From a virus, in IMG/VR virus record IMGVR_UViG_3300029951_000013, positions 24,896-88,895 of that record: a stretch of 64,000 bases of DNA; one strand, written 5' to 3'. The translations under genes were made by a program, and so were the position numbers. The notes beneath the pieces were generated by a model. That model worked only from the letters and a program-made list of their open reading frames with translations, was not told the origin of the DNA and did no database searches. The number at the start of each line of letters is the position of its first letter. Position 1 is the first letter of the stretch. This document shows, piece by piece, positions 22,310-53,197 of this stretch.

Positions 22310-22423
22310 CTAGACCGTGCGCTCGGTGAAGCGGAAGATCCGGGTGCCGAACTGCCACCAGGACGCCTTCCGCCGGGTGTTGCTGGCCACATCGAAGTAC
22401 TCGGTGCGGTAGTAACCGATCAT
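22310..22423 (-). CDS. 37-aa micro-ORF (MIGYYRTEYFDV...)
   Basis: ATGA overlap with the protease stop; TAG overlaps the next RBS. Confidence 0.5.
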   Translation of the reverse strand: MIGYYRTEYFDVASNTRRKASWWQFGTRIFRFTERTV

Positions 22424-25400
22424 GCGTCCGCCTTCACTCGTTTGGCCAGCATCTCCAGGACCCGGCGCATCGCCATCTGGTCCAGGTCGTGCTCGCTGGG
22501 TCCAGCCACGCCCGGCGCCACGGTGGGCTGACCTGCGGCGACCAGCGCCACCTGGGCCCCGGCGGAGACCCGGGCGCGCATACGCGGCACCGGGAACCCC
22601 GGCACGTTGACGGCCAGCAGGCCGACCAGGCGCAGCTTGCCGCCGATGCGCCGCCAGTCGCCGGACACCTGGCCCGCCGCACGCAGTGCCGCCACCTTCC
22701 CCGCGTCCGCGTCAGCCCGGATCGAGCCGGCGACCCAGATGCCGTGGACGTCGTTGCCCACGACCACGTCGGCCACTGCCCATCCGGTGTGGTCGTAGTG
22801 CTCCTTGGCCGCCTGGGCCCCGACGTTGAGGCTGGCGTGGCCGGTGCCGACGGTGATCTGGCCGACGGAGGCGGTAGTGCCGTCGTCCAGGCCGACCTCC
22901 CCGGTCATGTAGTAGGCGTGGTAGTCCTCGCGCGGCGGCTGGACGCACTGCCCGGTCTGGCCGATGTGGCAGGTCCCCCACTGCGCGGCGTGGCCGTAGA
23001 TCCGGCCGGAGTCGGACACGGTGATCGGGGTGGGCACCGACAACCCCGGGTCGGCGAACCACTCGGCGGGCGGAGTGTAGACGCCGAGGGAGGCGGTGAC
23101 CGCCCCGGTCTCGTCAGGCTCCTCGACCTGGGCGGCCTCCCACTCGGCCGGGTCCATCGCGCCGCCGGCCACCACAGCGCCGGTGTCGGCGTCGGTGAGC
23201 TGGATGTACGCGTCCTTGAACGCGGGTATGTCGCACAGGGTCGCCGCGCGGATCTGGCCGCCGTGGAAGATGACCTTCTCCGGCTGGGCGAAGAGCATGG
23301 CGAAGATGTCCTCTTCGTCGTCGCCCTCGTTGTTCCGCTCGGGCCAGACCATCTCGATATCGGCATCGCCGATCGAGTCGGCGTCGATGCTGACTCCGCG
23401 GACGAAACGGCCCGCGATCTTGTCGCGCGCGGCCACGCCGTTCGGGTCGGAGAGGTCGAGGACGCCGGTGGCCTGGATCTGGTTGCCGACCCGCTGGATC
23501 GTGTCGATCCGGCCGACGTTGACCGCTACCGTCCTCGGCTCCCCGCCGTGGGAGTCCTGGATGTTCCAGCGCAACGGGATCGGCGGGTCCTGCCAGGTCA
23601 GCGCGTCCGGCGCGAACTCGCGGCCGTCGCCGGTGGTCACGCCCTCCACCGCGAGGACACCCGACCACGGCGCGGTCGGACCGCCGGGCGCGATGACCGG
23701 AGCAGGCTGGATCGCCGGGGCTCCGGTGGCTGCTGCGGCCTTGAGGTTGTCCGGCACCGGCTCCTTGATGGCGTTGTAGTGCGCCACCAGGTGGGACTTC
23801 GCCGCCGCGACGGCCGCCGGGCTGTGCCCGGTCAGGCTGCTAAACCGGCCTGCTGCCGCGGCCAGTCCGGCGCGGTTCAGCTCGCCGTCCGGGTCGTGGT
23901 GCGGCAGGAAGCACTCCTCCTCGGGAGTCCCGTTGCCGGGGTCGCAGGCGGCCGACGCCGTCTTGTACTGCACGGGGGTGAAGTTCGAGGGACTGCCGTC
24001 CCAGGGTGCGTCGCTGACGGTGTTGCTGGAGCCGAAGTGCGCAGCGTCGTCCGGGCACTCGGCGCAGGGCGCACCGCCGCTGTCGGACATGCCGCTGGGG
24101 GCGGTGCTCCCGTCCGGCTTGTTCTTGCTCAGCCGCTTGTCCTTGGCGGTCCCCTTGTTCGGCTTGCCGCCGAGCTCTTCCTCAACAACGGTGGTCACGG
24201 GCGTACCCTCCTCGGCGGATGCCAGCATCCCCTGGTCCCAGACAGCGTAGATCGTGCCCCGGCAGTTACCGCCCCCTAGGCAGTCGGCATAGCCGCCGCC
24301 CGGGTAGGCGTCCTCGGCGTCGTCCAGCGAATTGAACGCCTTTCCGTCGACTGATTGACAGGGCTGACATGTCCGGTCGTCCAGAATCTCGGTGGCGTAG
24401 TAAGTGGCTGGAGGCGCGGCTTCCAGCACGGCGATGCGTCCGGCGTTCTGGGCAGCCGACATGGCCTCGCCCAGCCACTGCTTGTCGAAAGCGTCGGACA
24501 GGCCCTGTAGTGCCAACTCCACCTCGGACGCGAGCCTGATCCCGGAGAGGACGCTGAACAGGCCCATCGCGCGGTGCTTCGCGGCCTGCACCAGCCGGTT
24601 GCCCATGGTGTCGGCGGCGATGGACGCCACCTGGCGCAGCAGGTCGAGACCGGCCAGCGCAGCGACCCGGCCCGGTTCCAGACTCCAAGGCGGGACGTGG
24701 ACGCCCTGCTGCTCGGCCTCCTGCTGCTGCGCCACCCCGGCGGCCTGCGCAGTAGTGCGCATCCGGCCGTACAGGGTGTCGGCGGCCGTGTCCGTGGTGA
24801 TGGACAGCGTGGACAGGGCATCAGTGCCGCCGGCCAGGATCTGGTCCTTGATCTGGGTGCGCCAGTCGGCGGTGACCGCCTGCCAGTCCGTCAGGGCCCC
24901 GTTCACGGCCTGCTGCCAGCTGCGCTGGTGTGCCGCGAAGTCGACGCGTGCGGCCAGCTCGGTGGCGTTCGGCAGGCGGCGGAACTCGTCCGGGCGCTTC
25001 GCCCGCTTCGGCTTAGCGGCGGCGGTGATCGCGGTGCCGGTCGCGGCCAGGCTCGCGGTCAGCGGGATGTCCGTGTCCTCGTTTCCGAAGCTGACGCGGA
25101 TCCGGTCGAACGTCACCGGGCCGAGTTTCGCCTCCAGCGTGGAAGCCAGGCTCAGGTCGTCGGTGTAGGCAGCGCAGATGTGCGCCACCCACGGACTGTG
25201 CTGGTCCGGCAGCGGAACCGGATCGCCGCCGCGCTGCTGGTGGAGCATCAGCGCGTCCTGGACCGCCATGGCCGCCAGCTGGTGGAAGTCGTCCAACGGG
25301 CAGTCCGCAGCGTCGGCGTCCGGGTTGTCGCCGACGTTCCAGACCCAGGACGCGCCCGGGCTGTCGCCGTTCCAGTGTCCGATGCCGAAGACCTTGGTGG

Positions 25401-25737
25401 TGACTTGGTCCTGGTCGCCGGGGTACTGGTGCAGGGCGGCGATGATGTTCTGCTGCACTTCGGGCGGGAACGCCGAGGCGTCACCGCCGAGGAACATCAG
25501 CGTGCAGTGCAGCTCAGCCGCCACCTCGCCGCCCTTGACCGCGAGCCGCTTGGCATCGGCTGGAGTCGGCATCAGTGCGATCATGGCCCCGGAATGGGCG
25601 TCCGCGCCGGCGTCGGACGCCAGCATCCGGCGGCCGTGGGCGGACTGTACGTGGTGGCCGCGCTGATGGAGCTGCTCGACCACCGGCTGGCCGTCCCGGG
25701 TGCCGATACGCAATCGGGACGGTGTTCCCTCAGACAT
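22420..25737 (-). CDS. Fusion of 2H phosphoesterase, MuF-like head protein and capsid maturation protease
   Basis: LHCTLMFLG and WVAHICAAY (2H); ILDDRTCQPC..CLGGGNCRG (MuF); EGVTTGDGR, RGVSID, ATLCDIPAF (protease). Confidence 0.85.
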   Translation of the reverse strand: MSEGTPSRLRIGTRDGQPVVEQLHQRGHHVQSAHGRRMLASDAGADAHSGAMIALMPTPADAKRLAVKGGEVAAELHCTLMFLGGDASAFPPEVQQNIIAALHQYPGDQDQVTTKVFGIGHWNGDSPGASWVWNVGDNPDADAADCPLDDFHQLAAMAVQDALMLHQQRGGDPVPLPDQHSPWVAHICAAYTDDLSLASTLEAKLGPVTFDRIRVSFGNEDTDIPLTASLAATGTAITAAAKPKRAKRPDEFRRLPNATELAARVDFAAHQRSWQQAVNGALTDWQAVTADWRTQIKDQILAGGTDALSTLSITTDTAADTLYGRMRTTAQAAGVAQQQEAEQQGVHVPPWSLEPGRVAALAGLDLLRQVASIAADTMGNRLVQAAKHRAMGLFSVLSGIRLASEVELALQGLSDAFDKQWLGEAMSAAQNAGRIAVLEAAPPATYYATEILDDRTCQPCQSVDGKAFNSLDDAEDAYPGGGYADCLGGGNCRGTIYAVWDQGMLASAEEGTPVTTVVEEELGGKPNKGTAKDKRLSKNKPDGSTAPSGMSDSGGAPCAECPDDAAHFGSSNTVSDAPWDGSPSNFTPVQYKTASAACDPGNGTPEEECFLPHHDPDGELNRAGLAAAAGRFSSLTGHSPAAVAAAKSHLVAHYNAIKEPVPDNLKAAAATGAPAIQPAPVIAPGGPTAPWSGVLAVEGVTTGDGREFAPDALTWQDPPIPLRWNIQDSHGGEPRTVAVNVGRIDTIQRVGNQIQATGVLDLSDPNGVAARDKIAGRFVRGVSIDADSIGDADIEMVWPERNNEGDDEEDIFAMLFAQPEKVIFHGGQIRAATLCDIPAFKDAYIQLTDADTGAVVAGGAMDPAEWEAAQVEEPDETGAVTASLGVYTPPAEWFADPGLSVPTPITVSDSGRIYGHAAQWGTCHIGQTGQCVQPPREDYHAYYMTGEVGLDDGTTASVGQITVGTGHASLNVGAQAAKEHYDHTGWAVADVVVGNDVHGIWVAGSIRADADAGKVAALRAAGQVSGDWRRIGGKLRLVGLLAVNVPGFPVPRMRARVSAGAQVALVAAGQPTVAPGVAGPSEHDLDQMAMRRVLEMLAKRVKADA

Positions 25738-42888: not shown

Positions 42889-43905
42889 CTACCAGTGCAG
42901 AACCTCGCCCGGATAGATCAGGCCCGGATCGGCGCCGATCGTCCGGGCGTTGTCGCGGTACAGCGCCTGCCAGCCGCCGGGGACGCGGTACTCCGCCGCG
43001 ATGCCGGACAGGGTGTCGCCGCGCCGGACAGTGACGGTGTGTCCGGTCGTCCTGGGCACCGGGGCAGGCTTGGACGGCTTCGAGGCCGGACTGGACGTCA
43101 GGCGCACTCCGGCCGGGCGCACGGCGTACCAGCCGCGTCCCTGGGCGTCGTAGGCGACCGTGCGCAGCCTCACCCCGGTGGACGGGTTCTCCGCCACCAC
43201 GACGTCCCCGTGGCCGATGTACAGGGCCACATGGCTGCCGTTCGTGTAGACGATGATGTCCCCGGCGGCCAGGGCGGCGCGCGGCAGGCGGGCGTCGGCG
43301 GACGAAGTGCGGGGCACAGCAACGCCTGCGGCCCGCCAAGCGGCCTGGACGAGGCCGGAGCAGTCGAAGGCTCGTGGCCCTTCGTCACCGTAGCCGTACG
43401 CCGTGCCAACCTGGGCCAGGGCATAGTCCACGGCCCGGCTGGCGGAGACGCTGCGCACGGCCGCTGTCTCCCGGACTGCGGCGTGGACCACCGGGGACGC
43501 CTGGACTACGGCGGGCGCTGAGCCTGCGTCACCCCGGCTGAGTCCGGCGCGCGGTCCGCAGACAGGCCACGCGCCGGGGCCCTGCGCCGACAGTACCCGG
43601 TTGGCGACAGCGATCTGGGCCGATTCCGAAGCCCCGCTGGCGGTGGCGGCGTAGGCCCGGCCACCGTAAGCGTCCCAGGTGGAGGCGGAGAACTGGAGGC
43701 CGCCGTAGTAGCCGTTCCCGGTGTCGGCCGACCAGTTGCCACTGGACTCGCAGGCGGCGACCCGGTCCCAGACCGAGGAGTCGGCGGCACGGGCGGGCAC
43801 CGCGAAGGCGGCGATCCCGGCGGCGCACAGGGCCCCGGCGGTGAGCAGTCGTGCGGTTGTGCGCGGTACGGAAGTGCGTCCTTGGGGCGTGCGAACAGCA
43901 GCCAC
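42889..43905 (-). CDS. Secreted Rpf transglycosylase + NlpC/P60 + LysM protein
   Basis: Signal peptide ending ARA; [27 protein letters not shown]; FDCSGLV, HVALYIG; [18 protein letters not shown]. Confidence 0.92.
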
Positions 43906-43946
43906 AATCGGTCCTTCGGTAGGCGGTCCCCCCGACATGGGGGCGG

Positions 43947-43976
43947 ACGCTACCCACACGATCCACTGCGTTGCAA
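43947..43976 (-). promoter_or_regulatory. Housekeeping-sigma-type promoter of the rpf-like gene
   Basis: TTGCAA-18-TAGCGT. Confidence 0.55.
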
Positions 43977-44063
43977 GGAGTTCTCGATCGGTACCCCATG
44001 CGGAGTCCGGGATTCCGCCATCGGTCGCTGTCAAGGTCGACCGGAGCCGGCTACGGCATCGCC

Positions 44064-44113
44064 GCTGCTCACTGCCCCCTTGGTACCTCCTCGCCGGGGA
44101 GGCAGTGAGCAGC
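44064..44113. terminator. Hairpin ending the ParB/ABC-GNAT/CoA-transferase operon
   Basis: 13-bp arms GCTGCTCACTGCC / GGCAGTGAGCAGC. Confidence 0.65.
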
Positions 44114-44138
44114 AGTGGCCGGAGAGGCAGGGACCAAT

Positions 44139-44831
44139 TCAGATCGTGTACCGCCCACCATCGTTCCGCAGGTTCGCCCGGCGCCACGCGGCGTCCCGGA
44201 ACGGCTCGGCGATGACCTCGCCGCGGTACTCCACCCGGACGCCGTCACCGTCCCGGCCGTAGGTGCCCGGGTCGTCCCAGGGGGTCGCCGCACCGTCCCG
44301 GACGGCGGGCACCACGTCCTCCCCCTCGACCAGCTTCGCCAGCGCCGCGGCCTGCCGGACGACGAAGTGCCCGGGCCCGTCCACGGCCATCGCCTTGAAG
44401 GCCAGCCAGAGCCCGGCCGTGGTGTCGCCGATGTACACCGGGACGTAGCCGACGTGGTCTCCCCAGGCCCGCGCCTGCGCCACGGCATCGAAGGACCGGC
44501 CGTCGAAGTCGTCCCGCAGAGAGACCCAGCGCACCCCGAGCCGCTTGGCCTCCACCGCCGGGTCGATGCCCCAGGAGTCCCAGGTGGCCGCACGTATGTT
44601 GTCCACCACCACGTCGTAGGCGCCGGGCGGCAGCGAGGCCACCTCCAGGGCGTGCCTGGTCATGACCCGTTTCTGCCAGTTGAGCCAGTCCCACAGCAGC
44701 TCGCCGTCGGCGAGGCCCTGCACCGGGTCGGCCCGCTCGCCGACCCACTTCTCCACTTCGTGGCCCTGCTCAGCCAGGAGCATCCCGCAGTAGGCGGGGG
44801 CCAGGTACACCCCGAGTTCGAGGATCTTCAC
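44139..44831 (-). CDS. Family III CoA-transferase-like (CaiB/BaiF) protein, short form
   Basis: [50 protein letters not shown]; GTGA-coupled. Confidence 0.8.
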
Positions 44832-45922
44832 GGTGCCGCCTTGGGTGCGGTGTACTCGAAGGACCGGGTGGTCAACCGGCGCGGGTTCAACTGCGCGGCA
44901 CGTAGGCCCCGATCCCTGGTGGTGGTCTGGAGCCGCCCGCCTGCGGAGGTGTCCCGCCAGCGCGGCGACTGCTGGTAGTAGTGGATCATCGCCGGGTGGG
45001 CGACCACGTTCCGGTACCGGTAGTTCCGGTCCCACAGGTACTGGCCCAGCCAGTCGTCCAGCCGGCCGCCGATGCCCAGGCCCTGGTAGTCAGGCAGGAC
45101 GACCAGCCGGTGGCCCATCTTGATGTTCCTGGTCTGAGCGTGCGGGAAGTGCCGGTAGCTGGTGAAGGCGACCAGGTCGTCCCCGAGGAAGCCGCCGAAG
45201 CACTTCGCGCCGGTAGCGAGGGACCCGCTCAGATAGTGATGCGGGCGAAACAGGGGCCAGACGGAACGATCGACCTGGTGGACGCGGAGGTCCAGGTGTG
45301 GCCGGGATGGAACCGACCCCCAGGTGAGCGTATCCGTGGGCACCTCGTAGACCCAGTCCGGCTGGAGCCACTCGGCGATGTCGTAGTGGCAGGACACGGC
45401 GACGAACCGGCGCCCGCTGCGCCGCACGGCCTTCTGGACGGTGTGGCTGGCCACCTTGGCCACCTGGCGGTCCACCACCGAGGTGAACTCATCGATCACC
45501 ACCAGGCCGTCGGCCTCGGCGAGTGCCCGGGCTATGTCGGCGCGGAACTGCTCCCCGTTGGACAGGGTCCCGTGCGGCCGGAGCCAGACCGGCACCGAGC
45601 CGAGGCCCACCGAGCCGAGCAGCCCGGTGATGTCCTTGATGCCCATCCCGGCCGGGAAGTCGTCCACCAGGGACCGGTCCGAGGACCAGCGGTGGCCCTG
45701 GCTGTAGGCGTCCGGCCACAGGGCCCGGGCCACCGACGACTTCCCGGAGCCGGACGGGCCGACCACCAGGCCGACCGCCCAATCCCGGTCCTCGACCGGC
45801 AGGTGGACGTCCCAGGAGTTGGTCGCCTTCTCCTCGACCGTGACGTCCATCAGGGAGCTGATCTGGGCCAGCCGGGAGGACCCCCGGACCGGGGAGCTGA
45901 CCTCTACGCGCATCTCGGGCAC
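44828..45922 (-). CDS. ABC-type ATPase fused to GNAT acyltransferase
   Basis: GPSGSGKS, LSNGE, VIDEFTS, SCH; RLVVLPDYQGLGIG. Confidence 0.9.
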   Translation of the reverse strand: MPEMRVEVSSPVRGSSRLAQISSLMDVTVEEKATNSWDVHLPVEDRDWAVGLVVGPSGSGKSSVARALWPDAYSQGHRWSSDRSLVDDFPAGMGIKDITGLLGSVGLGSVPVWLRPHGTLSNGEQFRADIARALAEADGLVVIDEFTSVVDRQVAKVASHTVQKAVRRSGRRFVAVSCHYDIAEWLQPDWVYEVPTDTLTWGSVPSRPHLDLRVHQVDRSVWPLFRPHHYLSGSLATGAKCFGGFLGDDLVAFTSYRHFPHAQTRNIKMGHRLVVLPDYQGLGIGGRLDDWLGQYLWDRNYRYRNVVAHPAMIHYYQQSPRWRDTSAGGRLQTTTRDRGLRAAQLNPRRLTTRSFEYTAPKAAP

Positions 45923-45932
45923 GGCCGCCCCC

Positions 45933-46526
45933 TCAGGTGATCAGAGCGCGGACCCGCAGGCCCTCGGCGGCGAACCGGTCCAGCAGACCGGCCTGCTCGG
46001 CCTCGTCGGCGCAGTCCACCACCAAGGCCCAGGTGCCAGGGACGGCCTCGACCGCGGCGTCGCCGGCGGGAGGCATCGCCTCGTCCTGGCCGAGCAGCTT
46101 GGCCAGGTCCTCGTCCGTGTACCCGGTGCCGTAGAGCACCTGGCCGTCCGAGGCGGCGTCGGCCTCGGCCGCAGCGGTGAGCAGGTCGGCCAGGGCCTGC
46201 TGGTCGTACCCCCCGGCGTCCGAGGTGCGGTTGTCGGCGAGATTTACACGCCGCGCGGTGTCGTCGTCGCACTCGACCAGCTCACAGCGGACGGTGGTGT
46301 GGCGCTCGGCCGCCATGGCCCGCATCGTGTGGTTCCCGGCGAGCACGGTCAGCACCGGCTTCGCCTTGGCGGTGCCGCCCGGCATCCGGCGGACCACCAG
46401 GGAGCGGTACTGGCCGTTGCGGCGGAGCGATTCCCGGATCAGGGCGACGTCGCCGCGCTTGGCGTTTCCGGGGTAGGGCGTCAGATCCTTGATCGGGACG
46501 TCCTCCACCCCCAAGTGAGTGATCAT
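45933..46526 (-). CDS. ParB/Srx N-terminal domain protein
   Basis: LTPYPGNA, ESLRRNGQ, VLAGNHT, LADNR. Confidence 0.85.
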   Translation of the reverse strand: MITHLGVEDVPIKDLTPYPGNAKRGDVALIRESLRRNGQYRSLVVRRMPGGTAKAKPVLTVLAGNHTMRAMAAERHTTVRCELVECDDDTARRVNLADNRTSDAGGYDQQALADLLTAAAEADAASDGQVLYGTGYTDEDLAKLLGQDEAMPPAGDAAVEAVPGTWALVVDCADEAEQAGLLDRFAAEGLRVRALIT

Positions 46527-47367: not shown

Positions 47368-47730
47368 TCAGTCCTTGTAGGCCAAGGCACCGAGTCCGCT
47401 GTGCGCCCGGTCCAGGCTGCGGTACAGGGCGTCTGCCGCCCGGGCGGCGTCGGCCAGTCCGGCCAGGGACTCGGCTACACGCCGGTTGAGACTCCCCCGG
47501 TCGCTGCTGAGATGCCCGCCTTCGGCCAGTCCGGACAGGAACAGGCTGATCTGGTCGAGGCACTGCGGCAGGCTGCTGGCCACCTGCTTGAGGTTGGCGA
47601 CGGTGTCGTAGGCGTCACAGGGCGTCCGCAGTTCATCCTTGCCGGACTGGGTGGCATGTGCCAGACCCCGGATCGCGTCACCGGCGATGGAGGCCAGTTC
47701 GGCCGGGGTCGAAGTCGTCTCGTTCGTCAT
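47368..47730 (-). CDS. Hypothetical helical protein
   Basis: ATGA overlap with the RuvC-like stop. Confidence 0.65.
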   Translation of the reverse strand: MTNETTSTPAELASIAGDAIRGLAHATQSGKDELRTPCDAYDTVANLKQVASSLPQCLDQISLFLSGLAEGGHLSSDRGSLNRRVAESLAGLADAARAADALYRSLDRAHSGLGALAYKD

Positions 47731-48248
47731 GCCGCCGATCCTCCCGCAGTCGGCCGGAGCCCCGCAGGCCACTGGAACTTCCCGAGGTAGGCCCGCTGGG
47801 CCGCAGGCAGGGTGAACTCCGCTGCGCCGTAGTGGTCCAGGCCCGCGTGCCGCAGCCACCAGGCGTCGCACTCGTCATCGGTGGGGAACTCCAGTGAGGC
47901 CCGTTTGAGGGCGGCCACGGCCAGCTGTGACTTGGTCGCGTTTCCCTTGGCGACCGCGTAGGACTTGAGCGCCGCCGGGAGACAGAGAGCGTAGGGAACT
48001 CCCATGTCCAGCAGCTGGGAACGGACCGCCCCGTGCACCATCGCGAGGGACTTGGTCGAGAACGAGGTCTTGGGCACGTCCTCGATCACCGCCAAGTCCG
48101 CGCCCAGAGCCACGGCCGCCACCGCGTTTCTGATCTGGCAGAGCCGGGTGTCGCCGTCCCGGTCCCGGGTCTTGACGGCGAACGTGGTCCCGTCGGCCCG
48201 GGCCACTCCGGTCTGGGCCACGCTGAGGTCGAGTCCTATGACACGCAT
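47727..48248 (-). CDS. RuvC-like Holliday junction resolvase
   Basis: VIGLDLS..TG, AVIED, KGNATK, DDECDA. Confidence 0.88.
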   Translation of the reverse strand: MRVIGLDLSVAQTGVARADGTTFAVKTRDRDGDTRLCQIRNAVAAVALGADLAVIEDVPKTSFSTKSLAMVHGAVRSQLLDMGVPYALCLPAALKSYAVAKGNATKSQLAVAALKRASLEFPTDDECDAWWLRHAGLDHYGAAEFTLPAAQRAYLGKFQWPAGLRPTAGGSAA

Positions 48249-48280
48249 CTGCTGGTCTCCTTGGTCGGTGGTCGAAAAGC

Positions 48281-50116
48281 TCATTTGGCGTAGCAGGCAG
48301 CCCAGTCGGTGCCCGGCTTGCTCGCGCCACAGGTGATCGGCACGTCGTTCCAGGTGAAGGTCATCGCCTTCACGATCTCGTGCGACGCTTCCTCGGCATC
48401 CCCCTGCGGGATGTCGAACACGATCTCGTCGTGGACAACGCCCCGCAGCCATCCGGTGGCCTCCGGAATCCGGTCCACGACTGTCAGGAGGCCGGTGCAG
48501 AGGAGATCGCGCGCGCCCCCCTGCCCCATGAGGGCGGGTGCCTGGGTGTACGCCTTGGCACGGTCGCAGCGCATGAGTCGGCCGAAGCCGTTGTCCAGCA
48601 TCTCGCCGTCCCGGGCACGGTCACGGACATCACTGCGCCAGGACATCAGCTTCGGGAACTGCTCGGACATGGCCGCGTCGAACTGCTGGGCCAACTCCAT
48701 CTGAACGCCCTGGTTGGCGATCCCCTTGACGCCCATGCCGTAGTTCCAGCCGTGCCCGATTCTCTTGGCGTACTCGCGCCACTCCCCGTCATGACGTCCG
48801 AACACCCGGTCGGCGATCATGGAGTGCGCGTCCTCGCCGGGAGCGAACAGGGCCATGTAGGCGGGGTCCTGGCAGTGTCCGGCGATGGCGCGCATGTCGA
48901 CCTGGTCCATGTCGAACGCCATCAGGACGTTCCCCGGGTCCGGGACGAAGACAGCACGTTGGACCACCTTGCCGCCGCGCTTGCCCAGGTTGGTGGTCGA
49001 GGGCTTGACCATGGCCCACCGGCCGGAGGCCTGGTCGGTGGCGTTCCCCTCGTCCTCGCTGCCGATCCGCGCGTGGACCCGGTCGCCGACCAGGTGTTTG
49101 GCGATCTCGGCGTACTTCCCGGTGGTGCCGGTCACCCGGACCACGTGCTCGCAGATCTCCCGTACCGCGCTGTTGCCCCCATAGGCCCGGGGGTTGAGCA
49201 TCCCCGGGTGGAGCTTCCCCTCCGCACCCTTGCCGACCATGTAGCTTCCCTCGCCCAGAGCATCCGAGGACAGCGCCATGACTCCGGACTGCGTCCGGGG
49301 GACGTACGGTGCGCCGGCCCGCTTGAAAGCAGCCTCCAGGGCCTCCCGGCCGGGGCCCGACGACAGCGGCGACTTCCGCAGTTCCTCGTAGGCGACCTTC
49401 GCCGCACCCCGTCCCCGGTACTTCGTCTCGGTGAGCGGTACCCCGCAGTTGGCCGCGAGCCAGTCCAAGGACCCCTGCCGGGCGATTTCGTCCGCCTCTA
49501 TGCGCCGCTCCAGCTCCGGGACGTCGATGCGCCAGCCGTTGAGGGTCATCCGGTTCTGGAGGTGGGCGATCCGCATCTCCCGGCGGACGTAGTCCGGGAG
49601 GTCATCGCATCCGAGGGCCTGGTGGACCCCACGCAGGGCGAACAGGTCCCCGCGCAGGTACGAGACGTAGTCCGGGTCGTCCACCGGGATGCGGTCGTAC
49701 CCGCCGAACCGGGCGGCCAGTCCGGCCAGGTCATCGGTCTTGCCGGGTACGCCGAGCCGGGCGGCCAGCGAGTTCATGGAGTAGTACCCCTTCTCGCTCC
49801 AGGGCTTCTGGTGCTTGGAGCCGGGGGGGTCGTAGATCTGCGCCACCCGCATGGGGTCGACCATCTTCCGGGCCAGGGCGTCGTAGTCCGCCCCGCAGTA
49901 CCTCGCGATGGCGATCAGATCGAAAGCGAATCCGTTGTAGGCCGAGATCAAATCTGCGCGTTCCAGGACCGCCCGCAGCTTGGCAGGGTCCGCAGTGACG
50001 CCGGTGGTGTCACTGTCGTCGCGCAGCGCCCCGCAGATCCGGACGTATCCAGGGCCGTAGGTGAACAGGTCGGCGGCCGAGCCGGTCTCCAGGTCGAAGT
50101 ACACGGTGCCTGGCAT
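48281..50116 (-). CDS. polA: Family A DNA polymerase with 3'-5' exonuclease domain
   Basis: FDLET, YNGFAFD, YLRGD; motifs DMDQVDMR, AKRIGHGWNYG, VHDE; TGATG start 50116. Confidence 0.93.
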   Translation of the reverse strand: MPGTVYFDLETGSAADLFTYGPGYVRICGALRDDSDTTGVTADPAKLRAVLERADLISAYNGFAFDLIAIARYCGADYDALARKMVDPMRVAQIYDPPGSKHQKPWSEKGYYSMNSLAARLGVPGKTDDLAGLAARFGGYDRIPVDDPDYVSYLRGDLFALRGVHQALGCDDLPDYVRREMRIAHLQNRMTLNGWRIDVPELERRIEADEIARQGSLDWLAANCGVPLTETKYRGRGAAKVAYEELRKSPLSSGPGREALEAAFKRAGAPYVPRTQSGVMALSSDALGEGSYMVGKGAEGKLHPGMLNPRAYGGNSAVREICEHVVRVTGTTGKYAEIAKHLVGDRVHARIGSEDEGNATDQASGRWAMVKPSTTNLGKRGGKVVQRAVFVPDPGNVLMAFDMDQVDMRAIAGHCQDPAYMALFAPGEDAHSMIADRVFGRHDGEWREYAKRIGHGWNYGMGVKGIANQGVQMELAQQFDAAMSEQFPKLMSWRSDVRDRARDGEMLDNGFGRLMRCDRAKAYTQAPALMGQGGARDLLCTGLLTVVDRIPEATGWLRGVVHDEIVFDIPQGDAEEASHEIVKAMTFTWNDVPITCGASKPGTDWAACYAK

Positions 50117-50373
50117 CAGGCACCGTCCGCGGCGAACCAGTTGGCGGCGCCGGCCCTGTTCTCGTCCTGGCTGCGGTGGCCGGTGGGGGCGGAGGTGCAC
50201 CGGACGAGGCCCTGTGCCTCCAGTGCGGCCAGGGCGAGGTAGGCGGCTCCGGGGAACGCCTTGGGCGGGTAGCCGAGCCGGTTGCGGACGGCTCCGGCGG
50301 TCAGCCCGCCGGGCTCGGAGCGGAGCAGCTCCAGGACGGCGGCCGTGCGTGCGGCCTTGTGGTCGGTGGTCAT
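50116..50373 (-). CDS. Small winged-helix-like protein
   Basis: TGATG overlaps; L..LEAQGLV. Confidence 0.6.
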   Translation of the reverse strand: MTTDHKAARTAAVLELLRSEPGGLTAGAVRNRLGYPPKAFPGAAYLALAALEAQGLVRCTSAPTGHRSQDENRAGAANWFAADGA

Positions 50374-52901
50374 CAGGACTCCCAGTCGAATCCGTCGTCG
50401 GGGTCGGTCGGTTCTGCCGCCGGGGCGGCGGAGGGGTTCGGTTCGGGCAGCGGGTCCGGGGGAGCAGGCAGGGCGTCCGCCTCACACTCGGTAGTCGCCG
50501 GAAGAGGGCCGAAGAGGAAGGCGAGCGCGTCAGCGTCGGACACAGCCCGGGGCTTCGGAGGCACCGGACCGCCATCGGGTGTGGGAAGTGTGGGCTGGGG
50601 GCCACCACTCAAGAACTTTACGGCCGCATCGTCGGCCGCCGTCCGGCTTCCCGGAACGGGGTGTGGAACGGTGTGGGTAGTGTGGGCAGTCAGACCATTC
50701 CTGCCATAGGCCGACTGACTCACACCCTTAATGATCTCTTTCTCAGAGCCAACGTATGGTAGGGATGTCCCAGAACCCACACTACCCACACTCTGGGACA
50801 CCTCCGTGTCCTGGTTAGGCTGGATTTTCACCGGTTCGCGGTCTTCCCCGGTGTGGGTTGTCACGTTGACCCCGAGATTCTTGCTCCGGTGCCTGAGTCG
50901 GACCTCGCCCACACCGGGGATCGTCCGGAGCCGTTCGGCGAACTTCGGCCTGGACATGGGGTCAGCCCCACCGTCGTCCTTCACCCACGCTTGGAAGGCC
51001 TTGTACAGAACCGACAGGCCTTCTCCGTGCTCCGCCCCCACCAGCTGCCCGGCGACGTCCGGGTGGATGTCACACCGAGTGGCGACCCAACGCGCTACCC
51101 GGTCGCTCTTGGTCTCGAACTCCTCGGCTACGTCCGGGGCGGTCGGCAGGTAGGTGCCGCGCTCGTTGAAGGCCCGCCAGGCGGCTACCCAGCGACAGAG
51201 GATCCCCGGCAGCTCCTGGAGCATCGCCGCCTCGATCGTAGGGTCCTCACGCCCTGCGAAGGTCTTCCCGAACCGGTAGGGCTTGATCCGGTTGACGTAG
51301 GCCCGGGAGGTCTCGCTGACGGTCGGCAGCTCGTTGGCGGCGAAGACGAACAGGGCCTGGTTGGTGAACCGGAACGGCAGGCCGTACTTGCGGTCCGCCT
51401 CGATCAGGTCCTCGCCGGTCAGCATCTTGAAGAGCGAGATGTCGCTGACGTGCGCGGCCGACAGGTCACCGGAGACGTTGACCATCTTCTGGTACACGGC
51501 CGAGGACATGAACTTGTTGTCGGACAGCTGGAGCAGGCTGACCCCGCTCACATTCCCCTTTCCCGCTATGGCCTCGATCAGCCGCAGGAAGGTCCCCTTG
51601 CCCGACCGCGACGGCCCGAAGGCGAACAGGGCACGGCTCGGCGTCCTGGAGGGGTCGAGCATGGTCGAGGCCACCTCCTCCAGGGAGGTGTACTGGTTGG
51701 GGATGACCTGCCGGAGCCAGTCCTCGTAGACAGGGCACTGCGCGTCCGGTGTCCAGGCGATCGGGATCTGGAGTGCGCTCAGGTACTTGGGGCTGTGCTC
51801 CAGGAGTTCGCCGGTCTCCAGGTCGAGCATGCCGTTGGCGCAGTTGAGCAGCGGCCGGGGCTGCCGGTCGGGCAGCCGCATGCCGCGTTCGGCCAGTTCG
51901 CCGACCAGGTACTCCTCGATCGTGGCGCGCCAGTTGGGCCGGAAGTCCTCGCCCAGCATGGTCTTGACCCGGGCGATGAGCGGTTCCCGACCGCGCTCCA
52001 TCCGGAAGGCCCCGCCGCGGTACAGCGAGATCATGGACCCGCTGGCCAGGGCGGCCGGCTGGTCCTCCAGGACCGCCAGCGAGGCGGTGCGCGCCAGGAG
52101 CCCCTTGTCCGTGAAGTACGCCGACTCGGTCCGGCGCGACGGCGGGCGGCCCAGCTTGGTGACGGCTGCCTCGGCAATGCGCTGGATGTAGGACTCGCGC
52201 CGCTCGGGTGCCCGGCGTCCGAGGACGTCGTCCAGGCCCTCGCGCGCCTTGGCCCCGGCCAGCTTGGCGAACACGATCTCGTCCGCCCCCTCGGCCTCCA
52301 GCGCCTCCTTGAACGCCACCGCGGCGTCGTGGACGTTCCGGTTGGTCGCCACGTCGGCGTCGAACAGGACGACGACCCGGCGCCCCTCGGCCCAGGACAG
52401 GTCGGTGCCGATCCAGGAGTTGCAGCCGGGCACGGCGACCACGCCCCAGGCGGCAGGGGCCCACACGGCGGCGGCCAGTCCCTGCTTGGTGCCTTCCACG
52501 AAGAGGTACGGTGCGCTGTCCTCAGCGGGTGCGCGCAGGTGGGACAGAAAGGACCCGCAGCCCTTCGGCAGGATGTACTTGTGGGCCTCGCCCGCCTCGT
52601 CTACGACCGGGACGTCGGGCCGGAACTGGACGACGGTGCGGTCCAGGTCGCGCCACTCGAAGAGCATGCCCGGGCCGCGGCCGGGACCGGTGATCCAGTA
52701 CCTGGCGATCTCCTCAGGGACGTGCTCGGGCAGCCGGACGGCCCGTACGCCGAAGCGCACGGCCTGCTCGGGGGTCAGCGCGCCGGCGGCCAGGATCTCC
52801 AGGCTGTAGGGCGTGAACTCGTTGCCCAGGGCGTCCAGGACGCGCTGCCCGGCGTCGGGGACGTGGCCGTTGGACGAGGCGGGCGGTACCGCGGTCATCA
52901 T
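50373..52901 (-). CDS. DNA primase-helicase (Toprim-like domain plus P4/D5 SF3 helicase)
   Basis: FVEGTKQ, LFDAD, GLDD; NCANGMLDL, GPSRSGKGT, FKMLTGED, AANELP. Confidence 0.92.
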   Translation of the reverse strand: MMTAVPPASSNGHVPDAGQRVLDALGNEFTPYSLEILAAGALTPEQAVRFGVRAVRLPEHVPEEIARYWITGPGRGPGMLFEWRDLDRTVVQFRPDVPVVDEAGEAHKYILPKGCGSFLSHLRAPAEDSAPYLFVEGTKQGLAAAVWAPAAWGVVAVPGCNSWIGTDLSWAEGRRVVVLFDADVATNRNVHDAAVAFKEALEAEGADEIVFAKLAGAKAREGLDDVLGRRAPERRESYIQRIAEAAVTKLGRPPSRRTESAYFTDKGLLARTASLAVLEDQPAALASGSMISLYRGGAFRMERGREPLIARVKTMLGEDFRPNWRATIEEYLVGELAERGMRLPDRQPRPLLNCANGMLDLETGELLEHSPKYLSALQIPIAWTPDAQCPVYEDWLRQVIPNQYTSLEEVASTMLDPSRTPSRALFAFGPSRSGKGTFLRLIEAIAGKGNVSGVSLLQLSDNKFMSSAVYQKMVNVSGDLSAAHVSDISLFKMLTGEDLIEADRKYGLPFRFTNQALFVFAANELPTVSETSRAYVNRIKPYRFGKTFAGREDPTIEAAMLQELPGILCRWVAAWRAFNERGTYLPTAPDVAEEFETKSDRVARWVATRCDIHPDVAGQLVGAEHGEGLSVLYKAFQAWVKDDGGADPMSRPKFAERLRTIPGVGEVRLRHRSKNLGVNVTTHTGEDREPVKIQPNQDTEVSQSVGSVGSGTSLPYVGSEKEIIKGVSQSAYGRNGLTAHTTHTVPHPVPGSRTAADDAAVKFLSGGPQPTLPTPDGGPVPPKPRAVSDADALAFLFGPLPATTECEADALPAPPDPLPEPNPSAAPAAEPTDPDDGFDWES
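50579..50800. repeat. Iteron-like repeats, candidate replication origin inside the primase gene
   Basis: GTGTGGGAAGTGTGGG 50579-94, GTGTGGGTAGTGTGGG 50671-86, and its exact reverse complement 50776-91. Confidence 0.65.
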
Positions 52902-53197
52902 CGGCGGACCGCCCAGTCCCGGTCGGTGTGCATGACGGTGGCCGGGTGCAGGCCGCGCCGGGCGCACTCGGCGTCCAGGGCGTTGTGCGCGGCACTGGCC
53001 ATCGCTACGTACCAGTCGGAGGACGCCCGGGCTCCGGCGTCCTTGCGGGCCAAGTGCGTGCGGCCGGGGCACGGCTCGCCGACGGCCGGCCGGCAGATGC
53101 GGCACCGGACGTCCAGCAGGCCCGGCTGGGGGTGTTCCCGGCGGTAGGTCTGGAGAGCAGAGGCGTACACCGCGGCGGGTGTGGGGTCAGCGTGCAT
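52898..53197 (-). CDS. Small zinc-finger protein
   Basis: CRIC..C..H; GGAGGGG RBS; ATGA overlap. Confidence 0.65.
   Translation of the reverse strand: MHADPTPAAVYASALQTYRREHPQPGLLDVRCRICRPAVGEPCPGRTHLARKDAGARASSDWYVAMASAAHNALDAECARRGLHPATVMHTDRDWAVRR

Follow-up and report, generated by a model that had tools for sequence, protein, structure and literature searches.

Introduction

What reaction do three adjoining phage genes carry out when they encode a ParB-like protein, a soluble ABC ATPase fused to a GNAT acetyltransferase domain and a short relative of the family III CoA-transferases, and on which molecule does it act? The question is posed by the stretch of DNA analysed here (the window), 64,000 nucleotides that form bases 24896–88895 of the 88,895-bp virus record IMGVR_UViG_3300029951_000013, a soil phage whose record is complete by CheckV (100%). 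Hypermodification of their DNA is among the chief ways in which phages evade restriction and CRISPR, and it is a source of new chemistry. The original prediction for this operon was a system of that kind, in which the transferase supplies an unusual acyl-CoA that the ATP-driven GNAT installs on phage DNA. We find that the gene combination recurs, and we read it, tentatively and at somewhat below an even chance, as a phage ATP-dependent acyl-transfer cassette with its own donor-supply enzyme, which would place a beta-alanyl group on phage DNA.

Linkage of the three genes

All three genes lie on the minus strand. The ParB-like gene (45933..46526; 197 aa) begins with ATG, preceded by GGGAG, and is followed by the ABC-GNAT fusion gene (44828..45922; 364 aa) and by the gene for the short CoA-transferase (44139..44831; 230 aa), here called the mini-transferase; both of the latter begin with GTG. 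The first junction consists of a TGA, ten bases and a GTG (a 10-nt gap), and at the second the ABC-GNAT stop and the transferase start overlap as GTGA. Coordinates and junctions were all confirmed as first described, and the genes are translationally coupled, within the replication module.

Pattern-based searches returned 61 loci, 21 in species genomes and 40 on viral contigs; two of them (L022 and L023) match over the first 90 residues only and were subtracted, leaving 59. An ABC-GNAT gene stands directly upstream of the mini-transferase, on the same strand, in 46 of the 59, so the linkage of the CoA-transferase that the original prediction presupposed is indeed recurrent. Of these 46 linked loci, 39 also have a ParB match, and in 41 a gene for aspartate 1-decarboxylase (PanD) separates the transferase from the GNAT. 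When only distinct transferase sequences are counted, 35 of 48 are linked to ABC-GNAT, 29 of the 35 with ParB and 30 with PanD. The order GNAT-(PanD)-transferase is fixed in the 46 of 59 loci, with gaps of 3–21 nt where PanD is absent. The 13 loci lacking ABC-GNAT comprise four that are cut at the upstream contig end, eight that belong to a chromosomal clade discussed below, and one (L020, a 3.2-kb contig on which no partner gene was seen) that is unexplained. Besides actinobacterial phages and prophages, the sources of linked loci include Planctomycetota, Acidobacteriota and an Alphaproteobacterium.

The ABC-GNAT family itself is far larger, with at least 7682 proteins at E≤1e-5 among 8000 candidates scored, and the window protein matches phrog_11143 (function unknown) along almost its entire length (E 5.9e-103, residues 4–360 of 364). 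An annotated phage collection held 61 records with an ABC-GNAT relative, the mini-transferase being present only in two copies of the Jace record. Jace, a cultured Rhodococcus/Gordonia phage, carries the four-gene form: its genes 85–88 are annotated as ParB-like, 'ATP binding protein', 'aspartate decarboxylase' and 'hypothetical protein', and gp87 matches the panD model TIGR00223 at E 6e-27, under the equivalog cut-off.

The mini-transferase has a family III fold and nucleophile

The AlphaFold2 (AF2) model of the mini-transferase has a predicted local distance difference test (pLDDT) score of 74.4, being good to about residue 110 and in the helix of residues 131–149, and poor after 166. The matches that Foldseek listed for it were, without exception, family III (CaiB/BaiF-type) CoA-transferases or racemases sharing their fold, the best at E 1e-7. 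Structural alignment with VIA-align placed model residues 1–179 on CaiB 15–225 as its best result (Z 15.7, root mean square deviation 3.0 Å, 176 residues), and across 49 entries gave Z 15.7–12.7 with deviations of 2.5–3.9 Å over 164–179 aligned residues. The N-terminal large-domain fold is shared with CaiB, Frc, YfdW, YfdE, Rv3272, SUGCT and BbsEF, and with the racemases.

A profile was searched exhaustively against 1.84 billion representatives and drew 188 proteins at E≤0.001; the family is small, with 31 clusters at E≤1e-30. Several intermediates of 353–406 aa match profile positions 2–157 or 2–184 at E 1e-7 to 1e-10. Through these intermediates we built a bridged alignment of 12 sequences: the window protein, four other mini-transferases, six of the 353–406-aa proteins and Escherichia coli CaiB. 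Asp136 of the motif YIGDTTAG (codon 44424–44426) falls in an invariant column with the catalytic D169 of CaiB, and a pairwise alignment likewise pairs YIGDTTAGL with CaiB YTADYFSGL. Y133, G135, D136 and T137 are invariant across 25 mini-transferase homologues. According to the bridged alignment the mini proteins end some 170 residues short of full-length members, whose C-terminal region is theirs only; at 230 aa, against about 350–430 aa for two-domain members, the window protein does not have the full architecture. The description of a short CaiB-like protein that retains the motif Asp therefore holds: the mini-transferase has the family III fold and nucleophile, but not the whole of the family's architecture.

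Its Atlas cluster has 157 members, 55% of them viral, and a PF02515 match is precomputed for many of its homologues. Longer relatives were represented by one protein only (P0243) among 8000 longer candidates scored. P0243, a single 404-aa sequence on one 9.4-kb metagenome contig, joins ABC residues 1–180 to the mini-transferase from residue 5, and lacks the GNAT and any PanD. It was set aside as an informative fusion, being a single sequence that may have arisen by deletion or through a join made in assembly.

Linked decarboxylases and a probable omega-amino-acid substrate

PanD makes beta-alanine. Its presence in 41 of 46 linked loci points to beta-alanyl-CoA as the most likely identity of the 'unusual acyl-CoA', and that the acyl group is in fact beta-alanyl is a proposition to which, on such sequence linkage, we would give an even chance.

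A second line of linkage comes from the eight chromosomal actinobacterial transferases. These form one clade with support of 100, nested in a 25-row, mainly actinobacterial set of phage and prophage sequences, and at seven of the eight loci (L003–L008 and L011; for example L004:6595–10151) the mini-transferase lies between a gene resembling glutamate decarboxylase (GAD) and one for aminobutyraldehyde dehydrogenase. The GAD-like product, a pyridoxal phosphate (PLP) decarboxylase, matches TIGR01788 at E 2e-108 with 362.8 bits, under the 380.4 cut-off, and the dehydrogenase matches NF010000 with 621.6 bits, over the cut-off of 615. In L004 the stop of the GAD-like gene overlaps the start of the mini-transferase. 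At L009, also of the chromosomal clade, no decarboxylase or aldehyde dehydrogenase (ALDH) match was obtained. Glutamate decarboxylase and aminobutyraldehyde dehydrogenase both make gamma-aminobutyric acid (GABA), and the chromosomal triad suggests a GABA-activating function, for which no pathway is known. Two unrelated types of decarboxylase, each yielding an omega-amino acid, are fixed beside the family, and this linkage is the best available argument that the acid substrate of the mini-transferases would be an omega-amino acid and the product an aminoacyl-CoA.

ATPase and GNAT motifs are intact in the fusion protein

The prediction of a soluble ABC ATPase fused to a GNAT was upheld, both domains passing their Pfam cut-offs. 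The ABC-ATPase domain (45308..45922, minus strand; residues 1 to ~205) scores 31.2 bits with ABC_tran (cut-off 25), and the GNAT domain (44828..45307, minus strand; residues ~206–364) scores 27.5 bits with Acetyltransf_1 (cut-off 20.7). Across 25 ABC-GNAT sequences of 30–82% identity, the invariant residues include G55, S57, G58, G60 and K61 of Walker A (the Lys61 codon being 45740–45742), L120, S121 and G123 of the signature, D144 and E145 of Walker B, and H179 of the H-loop. In the acyl-CoA loop of the GNAT domain, QGLGIG, both G281 and G283 are invariant and Q280 is found in 90% of the sequences; R272, V274 and P277 are invariant also, and a basic C-terminal tail is conserved. The catalytic motifs of ATPase and GNAT alike are thus intact.

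The AF2 model of the GNAT domain has a pLDDT of 88.7 and drew 462 PDB matches at E≤0.001 in Foldseek, the best of them GNATs such as RimI (5isv, 1.2e-6). A clue to the substrate was sought from this fold search, which returned generic GNATs only. Among the 18 Pfam families matched by the ABC-GNAT at E≤1, a comparison confined to sequence models, there was no Mom-type model.

The ParB-like protein and the case for a DNA target

The ParB/Srx domain first read in the 197-aa protein is borne out by its match to PHROG 723 (E 7.9e-42) and to eight more ParB-type PHROGs, though it lies below Pfam detection, the Pfam ParB models giving no match at E≤1. The protein also matches the N-terminal part of PHROG 498 ('DNA methyltransferase'), which consists of ParB-methyltransferase fusions. 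Three parts can be told apart when 19 homologues are aligned: a ParB/Srx-type domain at the N-terminus, a linker of helices and, at the C-terminus, a small beta-alpha-beta domain; the helix-turn-helix (HTH) DNA-binding domain is absent. We placed the Box II motif on this alignment. Residues 64–67 (window 46324–46335) are G-N-H-T, in the context AGNHT and ending in T67; the fourth Box II position is Arg in 6 of the 19 aligned homologues and Thr in 13. Thr occupies it in all twelve ParB-like proteins of transferase-linked cassettes and in that of phage NHagos. The phosphate-binding Arg of Box II is needed for NTP binding (PMC12704722), which may have been lost in the Thr-bearing clade.

That phage ParB-like proteins partner DNA-modifying enzymes, as the original prediction stated, has an experimental instance: one lacking a DNA-binding domain activates a DNA thymine dioxygenase (5mYOX), and in that ParB partner mutations of NTP-binding residues are tolerated (PMC13229309). 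The ParB of the phage thymine dioxygenases resembles the present protein in having a nucleotide-binding-type domain and a C-terminal domain with no DNA-binding domain, and is likewise encoded beside a DNA-modifying enzyme; it differs in that its partner is an Fe/2OG dioxygenase, here an ABC-GNAT, and in that its NTP-binding residues were mutated, whereas the Box II Arg is naturally Thr here.

Eleven annotated phages were sampled across Actinomycetota, Proteobacteria, Firmicutes and Spirochaetes: eight of them have a ParB-like gene directly ahead of the ABC-GNAT, and in six the module stands just before the terminase genes. Lytic and temperate phages both carry it beside packaging genes. Together with the kinship to PHROG 498 and the 5mYOX precedent, this association with ParB and this siting before terminase speak, by analogy, for DNA as the target; we regard the matter as evenly balanced.

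Several phages depart from this arrangement. A PurN-like formyltransferase comes after the ABC-GNAT in three of them, Burkholderia phage phiE255, Pseudomonas phage Komp_PAO1_1 and a Porphyromonas phage (L066:2801–4694, L069:2816–4691 and L067:2876–4601), where a protein of 42–54 aa takes the place of ParB ahead of the ABC-GNAT. The Mu-like phiE255 and Komp_PAO1_1 have the ABC-GNAT after the tail-fibre genes, with the formyltransferase downstream, and mom sits at the end of Mu that corresponds to the ABC-GNAT slot in phiE255. The small protein of these two phages belongs to phrog_28816, which also matches the C-terminal tail of the SL25 ParB-like protein (residues 149–182), so that the ParB C-terminal domain alone may serve as an adaptor. 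An extra stand-alone GNAT, 49% identical to the window GNAT domain, lies between the ParB gene and the ABC-GNAT of one viral contig (L027:6386–6889). Two more phages, Lactococcus phage P335 and Streptococcus phage Javan464, match in two pieces, with ABC-ATPase and GNAT under separate annotated genes (L068:3001–4055 and L073:2815–3884); the ParB-like gene of Javan464 is annotated 'DNA modification methylase'.

Proposed mechanism

In the reading that we favour, the mini-transferase would move CoA from an abundant acyl-CoA onto an omega-amino acid, most likely beta-alanine, by way of an anhydride and thioester at Asp136, to give beta-alanyl-CoA; because the phage lacks PanD, the beta-alanine would come from host PanD. 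The GNAT domain would then use beta-alanyl-CoA to N-acylate its target, while a dimer of the ABC-ATPase, through ATP binding and hydrolysis, and the ParB-like protein as an adaptor would position the enzyme on phage DNA. The target would be the exocyclic amine of a DNA base, yielding an N-(3-aminopropanoyl) base, and the positively charged acyl-amino base would shield packaged DNA from host nucleases. We infer the CoA-transfer step from gene linkage and fold, and the use of the GNAT, the coupling to DNA and the protection from linkage, analogy and a published prediction. That the mini-transferase supplies the donor to the GNAT is, on the linkage described above, probable.

Evidence against and alternative explanations

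A number of findings weigh against this reading, beginning with the transferase. Its CoA_transf_3 (PF02515) match scores 22.4 bits, below the gathering cut-off of 23.3, and covers residues 1–92 only, so that the assignment as a CoA-transferase needed structure. A 25-sequence profile was not significant against PDB sequences (formyl-CoA transferase at E 0.24, fatty-acyl-CoA racemase at E 0.37), hhalign of the mini-transferase profile with E. coli CaiB gave 26 N-terminal columns at a probability of 0.7, and phmmer against PDB sequences returned chance ribosomal-protein matches only; because these sequence routes were not significant, the family III assignment rests on the fold searches and the bridged alignment. 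Prediction is poor over the last third of the model (pLDDT 43–62). Moreover, the C-terminal part that the mini-transferase lacks includes a small domain which helps to form the active site in the interlocked dimer of this family, and with about 170 residues missing CoA-transferase activity is not assured. Nor do the transferase-linked ABC-GNATs fall cleanly into one clade: their tree requires three changes, of which well-supported branches force only one. That tree omits 14 rows (eight exact duplicates and six partial or split matches: L014, L017, L056, L063, L068 and L073), and its contrast consists of nine unlinked phage proteins only. Finally, every step of the mechanism is inferred from sequence.

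It is conceivable, if improbable, that the mini-transferase belongs to host metabolism: as an auxiliary metabolic gene, together with PanD at the loci that have one, it would act on host pools of omega-amino acids or CoA and be a mere neighbour of ParB and ABC-GNAT. One whole clade does occur outside the ParB/ABC-GNAT context, in the chromosomal GAD/ALDH triads, and PanD is an enzyme of the pantothenate/CoA pathway; but a CoA-transferase plays no part in CoA synthesis, and the overlap with the GNAT stop, the fixed gene order and the short gaps where PanD is absent tell against this alternative.

With respect to the donor, the complete phage record contains no PanD, and the assignment of beta-alanine is to that extent an extension from relatives. 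On the transferase tree the PanD-less forms (the window, L019, L024, L027, L041 and L046) do not group together but are scattered among those with PanD, which takes five changes, and a Streptomyces genome with the PanD-less cassette L019 has one panD elsewhere; the pattern agrees with a dispensable PanD that was lost repeatedly, beta-alanine then coming from the host. At a Nonomuraea locus (L010, contig 10, 26956–27264) the cassette PanD is divergent, scoring 102.8 bits with Asp_decarbox versus 167–170 for the two host copies. The absence of PanD from the window and from five of the 46 linked loci also lends itself to the explanation that DNA is acylated from another donor, such as GABA, a glycine-like or short acid, or plain acetyl-CoA. 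That explanation gains from the GABA-forming enzymes tied to the sister chromosomal clade, and from the fact that most ABC-GNAT cassettes have no transferase, as the 61 annotated phage records illustrate. We nevertheless consider it distinctly unlikely here, given that the window transferase falls within the PanD-linked ones (its nearest relative is L024, 80% identical, followed by L025, L026 and L032, all three linked to PanD) and that the scattered losses and the panD of the L019 host fit supply from the host.

As to the target, the nearest solved structures to the GNAT domain are protein N-terminal or small-molecule acetyltransferases (RimI, SpeG and Naa50), and generic neighbours of this sort, found with a predicted model, are uninformative on a DNA substrate. 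None of the three proteins has a DNA-binding domain that can be recognised, and with Thr67 instead of the Box II Arg, nucleotide-dependent clamping on DNA is doubtful. For many phage GNATs the predicted substrates are host proteins, RNA polymerase among them (PMC7824862). These points speak for an alternative in which the aminoacyl-CoA enzymology is alike and the acceptor is a phage or host protein (DNA-binding, packaging or polymerase) or, as with the ATPase-coupled RNA acetyltransferases, an RNA or tRNA, and to them can be added that soluble ABC ATPases also act on ribosomes, the window ABC-GNAT matching the ABC-F model NF000355 at E 3.1e-6. We think such an acceptor unlikely, although by no means negligibly so, in view of the ParB-like gene directly upstream in eight of 11 phages and 39 of 46 linked loci, the ParB domain held in common with the methyltransferase fusions of PHROG 498, the siting of the module before terminase or in the mom slot of Mu, and the published ParB-like activator of a DNA-modifying enzyme (PMC13229309).

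A last alternative, that the cassette is a defence or superinfection-exclusion system of a phage-plasmid and not a means of self-protection, is very improbable. ParB-superfamily and ABC ATPase proteins do occur in defence systems (PMC10853773, PMC12839542), and PADLOC gave weak matches to mad3 and mad8; these, however, concern generic ATPase motifs only (mad3 residues 115–153, mad8 51–76), the operon has no nuclease or other effector, and the module is found in lytic as well as temperate phages, adjoining packaging genes. PADLOC returned no match for the mini-transferase, matched the ParB-like protein only to the ParB-like N-terminus of its MTase_II model, and as a search for the identity of a defence system gave nothing specific.

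Genomic surroundings

The window has a G+C content of about 70% and a tailed-phage gene set, including tape measure, major head protein, portal, endolysin, integrase-like recombinase, DNA polymerase, primase and helicase. On the minus strand a replication module leads to the operon, running from the primase (50373–53105) through the DNA polymerase (48281–50608) to a RuvC-like resolvase (47727–48452) and some small open reading frames (ORFs). The gene after the operon (42889–44187) encodes a product with an Rpf-like transglycosylase, an NlpC/P60-like region and a LysM-type endolysin match, probably a secreted cell-wall enzyme outside the cassette. With these replication genes upstream and this enzyme downstream, no permease was found near the operon, as had been stated. 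Elsewhere in the window (22420–25737), an ORF of 1105 aa has an RNA-ligase/2H-like match in its N-terminal part, together with a portal/MuF-like region and a head-maturation protease.

The terminator proposed to close the operon is only partly borne out. A GC-rich 18-bp hairpin (44062..44115, minus strand) does follow, 24 nt past the operon stop codon, with a folding free energy of −54.4 kcal/mol (z −2.79; 2 of 200 shuffles equally good); the T-tract is missing, no U-run stands behind the hairpin, and a consensus scan called no T-tailed terminator after the operon. The hairpin is possibly a factor-independent terminator, or an insulator before the Rpf-like gene.

Relation to known systems

That a phage GNAT coupled to an ABC ATPase puts an acyl group, as yet uncharacterised, on a DNA nucleobase is a prediction made in NAR in 2013 by Iyer, Zhang, Burroughs and Aravind (cited in PMC7824862). 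The present cassette is alike in its fused ABC-GNAT, of the phrog_11143 family, and in the ParB-like gene directly upstream, and adds the mini-transferase, joined in most relatives by PanD. The earlier statement that no characterised system has this trio is therefore literally true but overstates the novelty, since the core pair was already predicted. The pair of ParB and ABC-GNAT is not new; its extension by the mini-transferase, with or without PanD, may be. We found no experimental study of the ABC-GNAT family and no paper on the CoA-transferase/PanD extension, although Iyer et al. 2013 and Krishnan et al. 2020 may mention such neighbours. No paper was found that joins aspartate decarboxylase, CoA transferase, phage and DNA modification (the supplements of PMC7824862, PMC12704722 and PMC13229309 could list the cassette), nor one joining ParB, acetyltransferase, ABC, phage and aspartate decarboxylase. 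What was found on ABC ATPases, GNATs and ParB concerns other systems, and the available parts of PMC12839542, PMC10853773 and PMC12704722 do not mention the cassette.

Mom of phage Mu is a GNAT-superfamily enzyme that acylates adenine N6 from acyl-CoA (PMC7824862), and resembles what is proposed for the present system, an acyl-CoA-dependent enzyme of GNAT fold that would modify phage DNA after replication. Mom has no ATPase, ParB partner or donor-supply enzyme.

Two further parallels are likened here by description only. The RNA cytidine acetyltransferases TmcA and NAT10 combine a P-loop ATPase with a GNAT and N-acylate an exocyclic nucleobase amine with acyl-CoA and ATP; they differ in having a helicase-type ATPase in place of an ABC ATPase, an RNA substrate and an acetyl donor. 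The beta-alanine CoA-transferase of Clostridium propionicum converts an omega-amino acid and an acyl-CoA into an aminoacyl-CoA, the same reaction as is proposed for the mini-transferase, in a beta-alanyl-CoA pathway that is catabolic there and belongs to a phage here.

Significance

The variants in which PanD accompanies the mini-transferase point to a concrete donor, and by doing so turn a vague prediction into a defined test, the search for a +71 Da adduct, for which the four-gene form of the cultured phage Jace is at hand. The mini-transferase is of enzymological interest in its own right, since it retains the catalytic Asp but not the part by which the active site is completed in every solved member of the family. 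That a beta-alanyl (+71.04 Da) base mark, a nucleotide-independent ParB adaptor, a 230-aa transferase working without the small domain, and GABA activation in actinobacterial chromosomes should all prove real is rather unlikely. The operon is nonetheless a lead, which can be tested at the bench, to what may be new DNA chemistry; and if the favoured reading is true, that chemistry and a minimal omega-amino-acid CoA-transferase would both be new.

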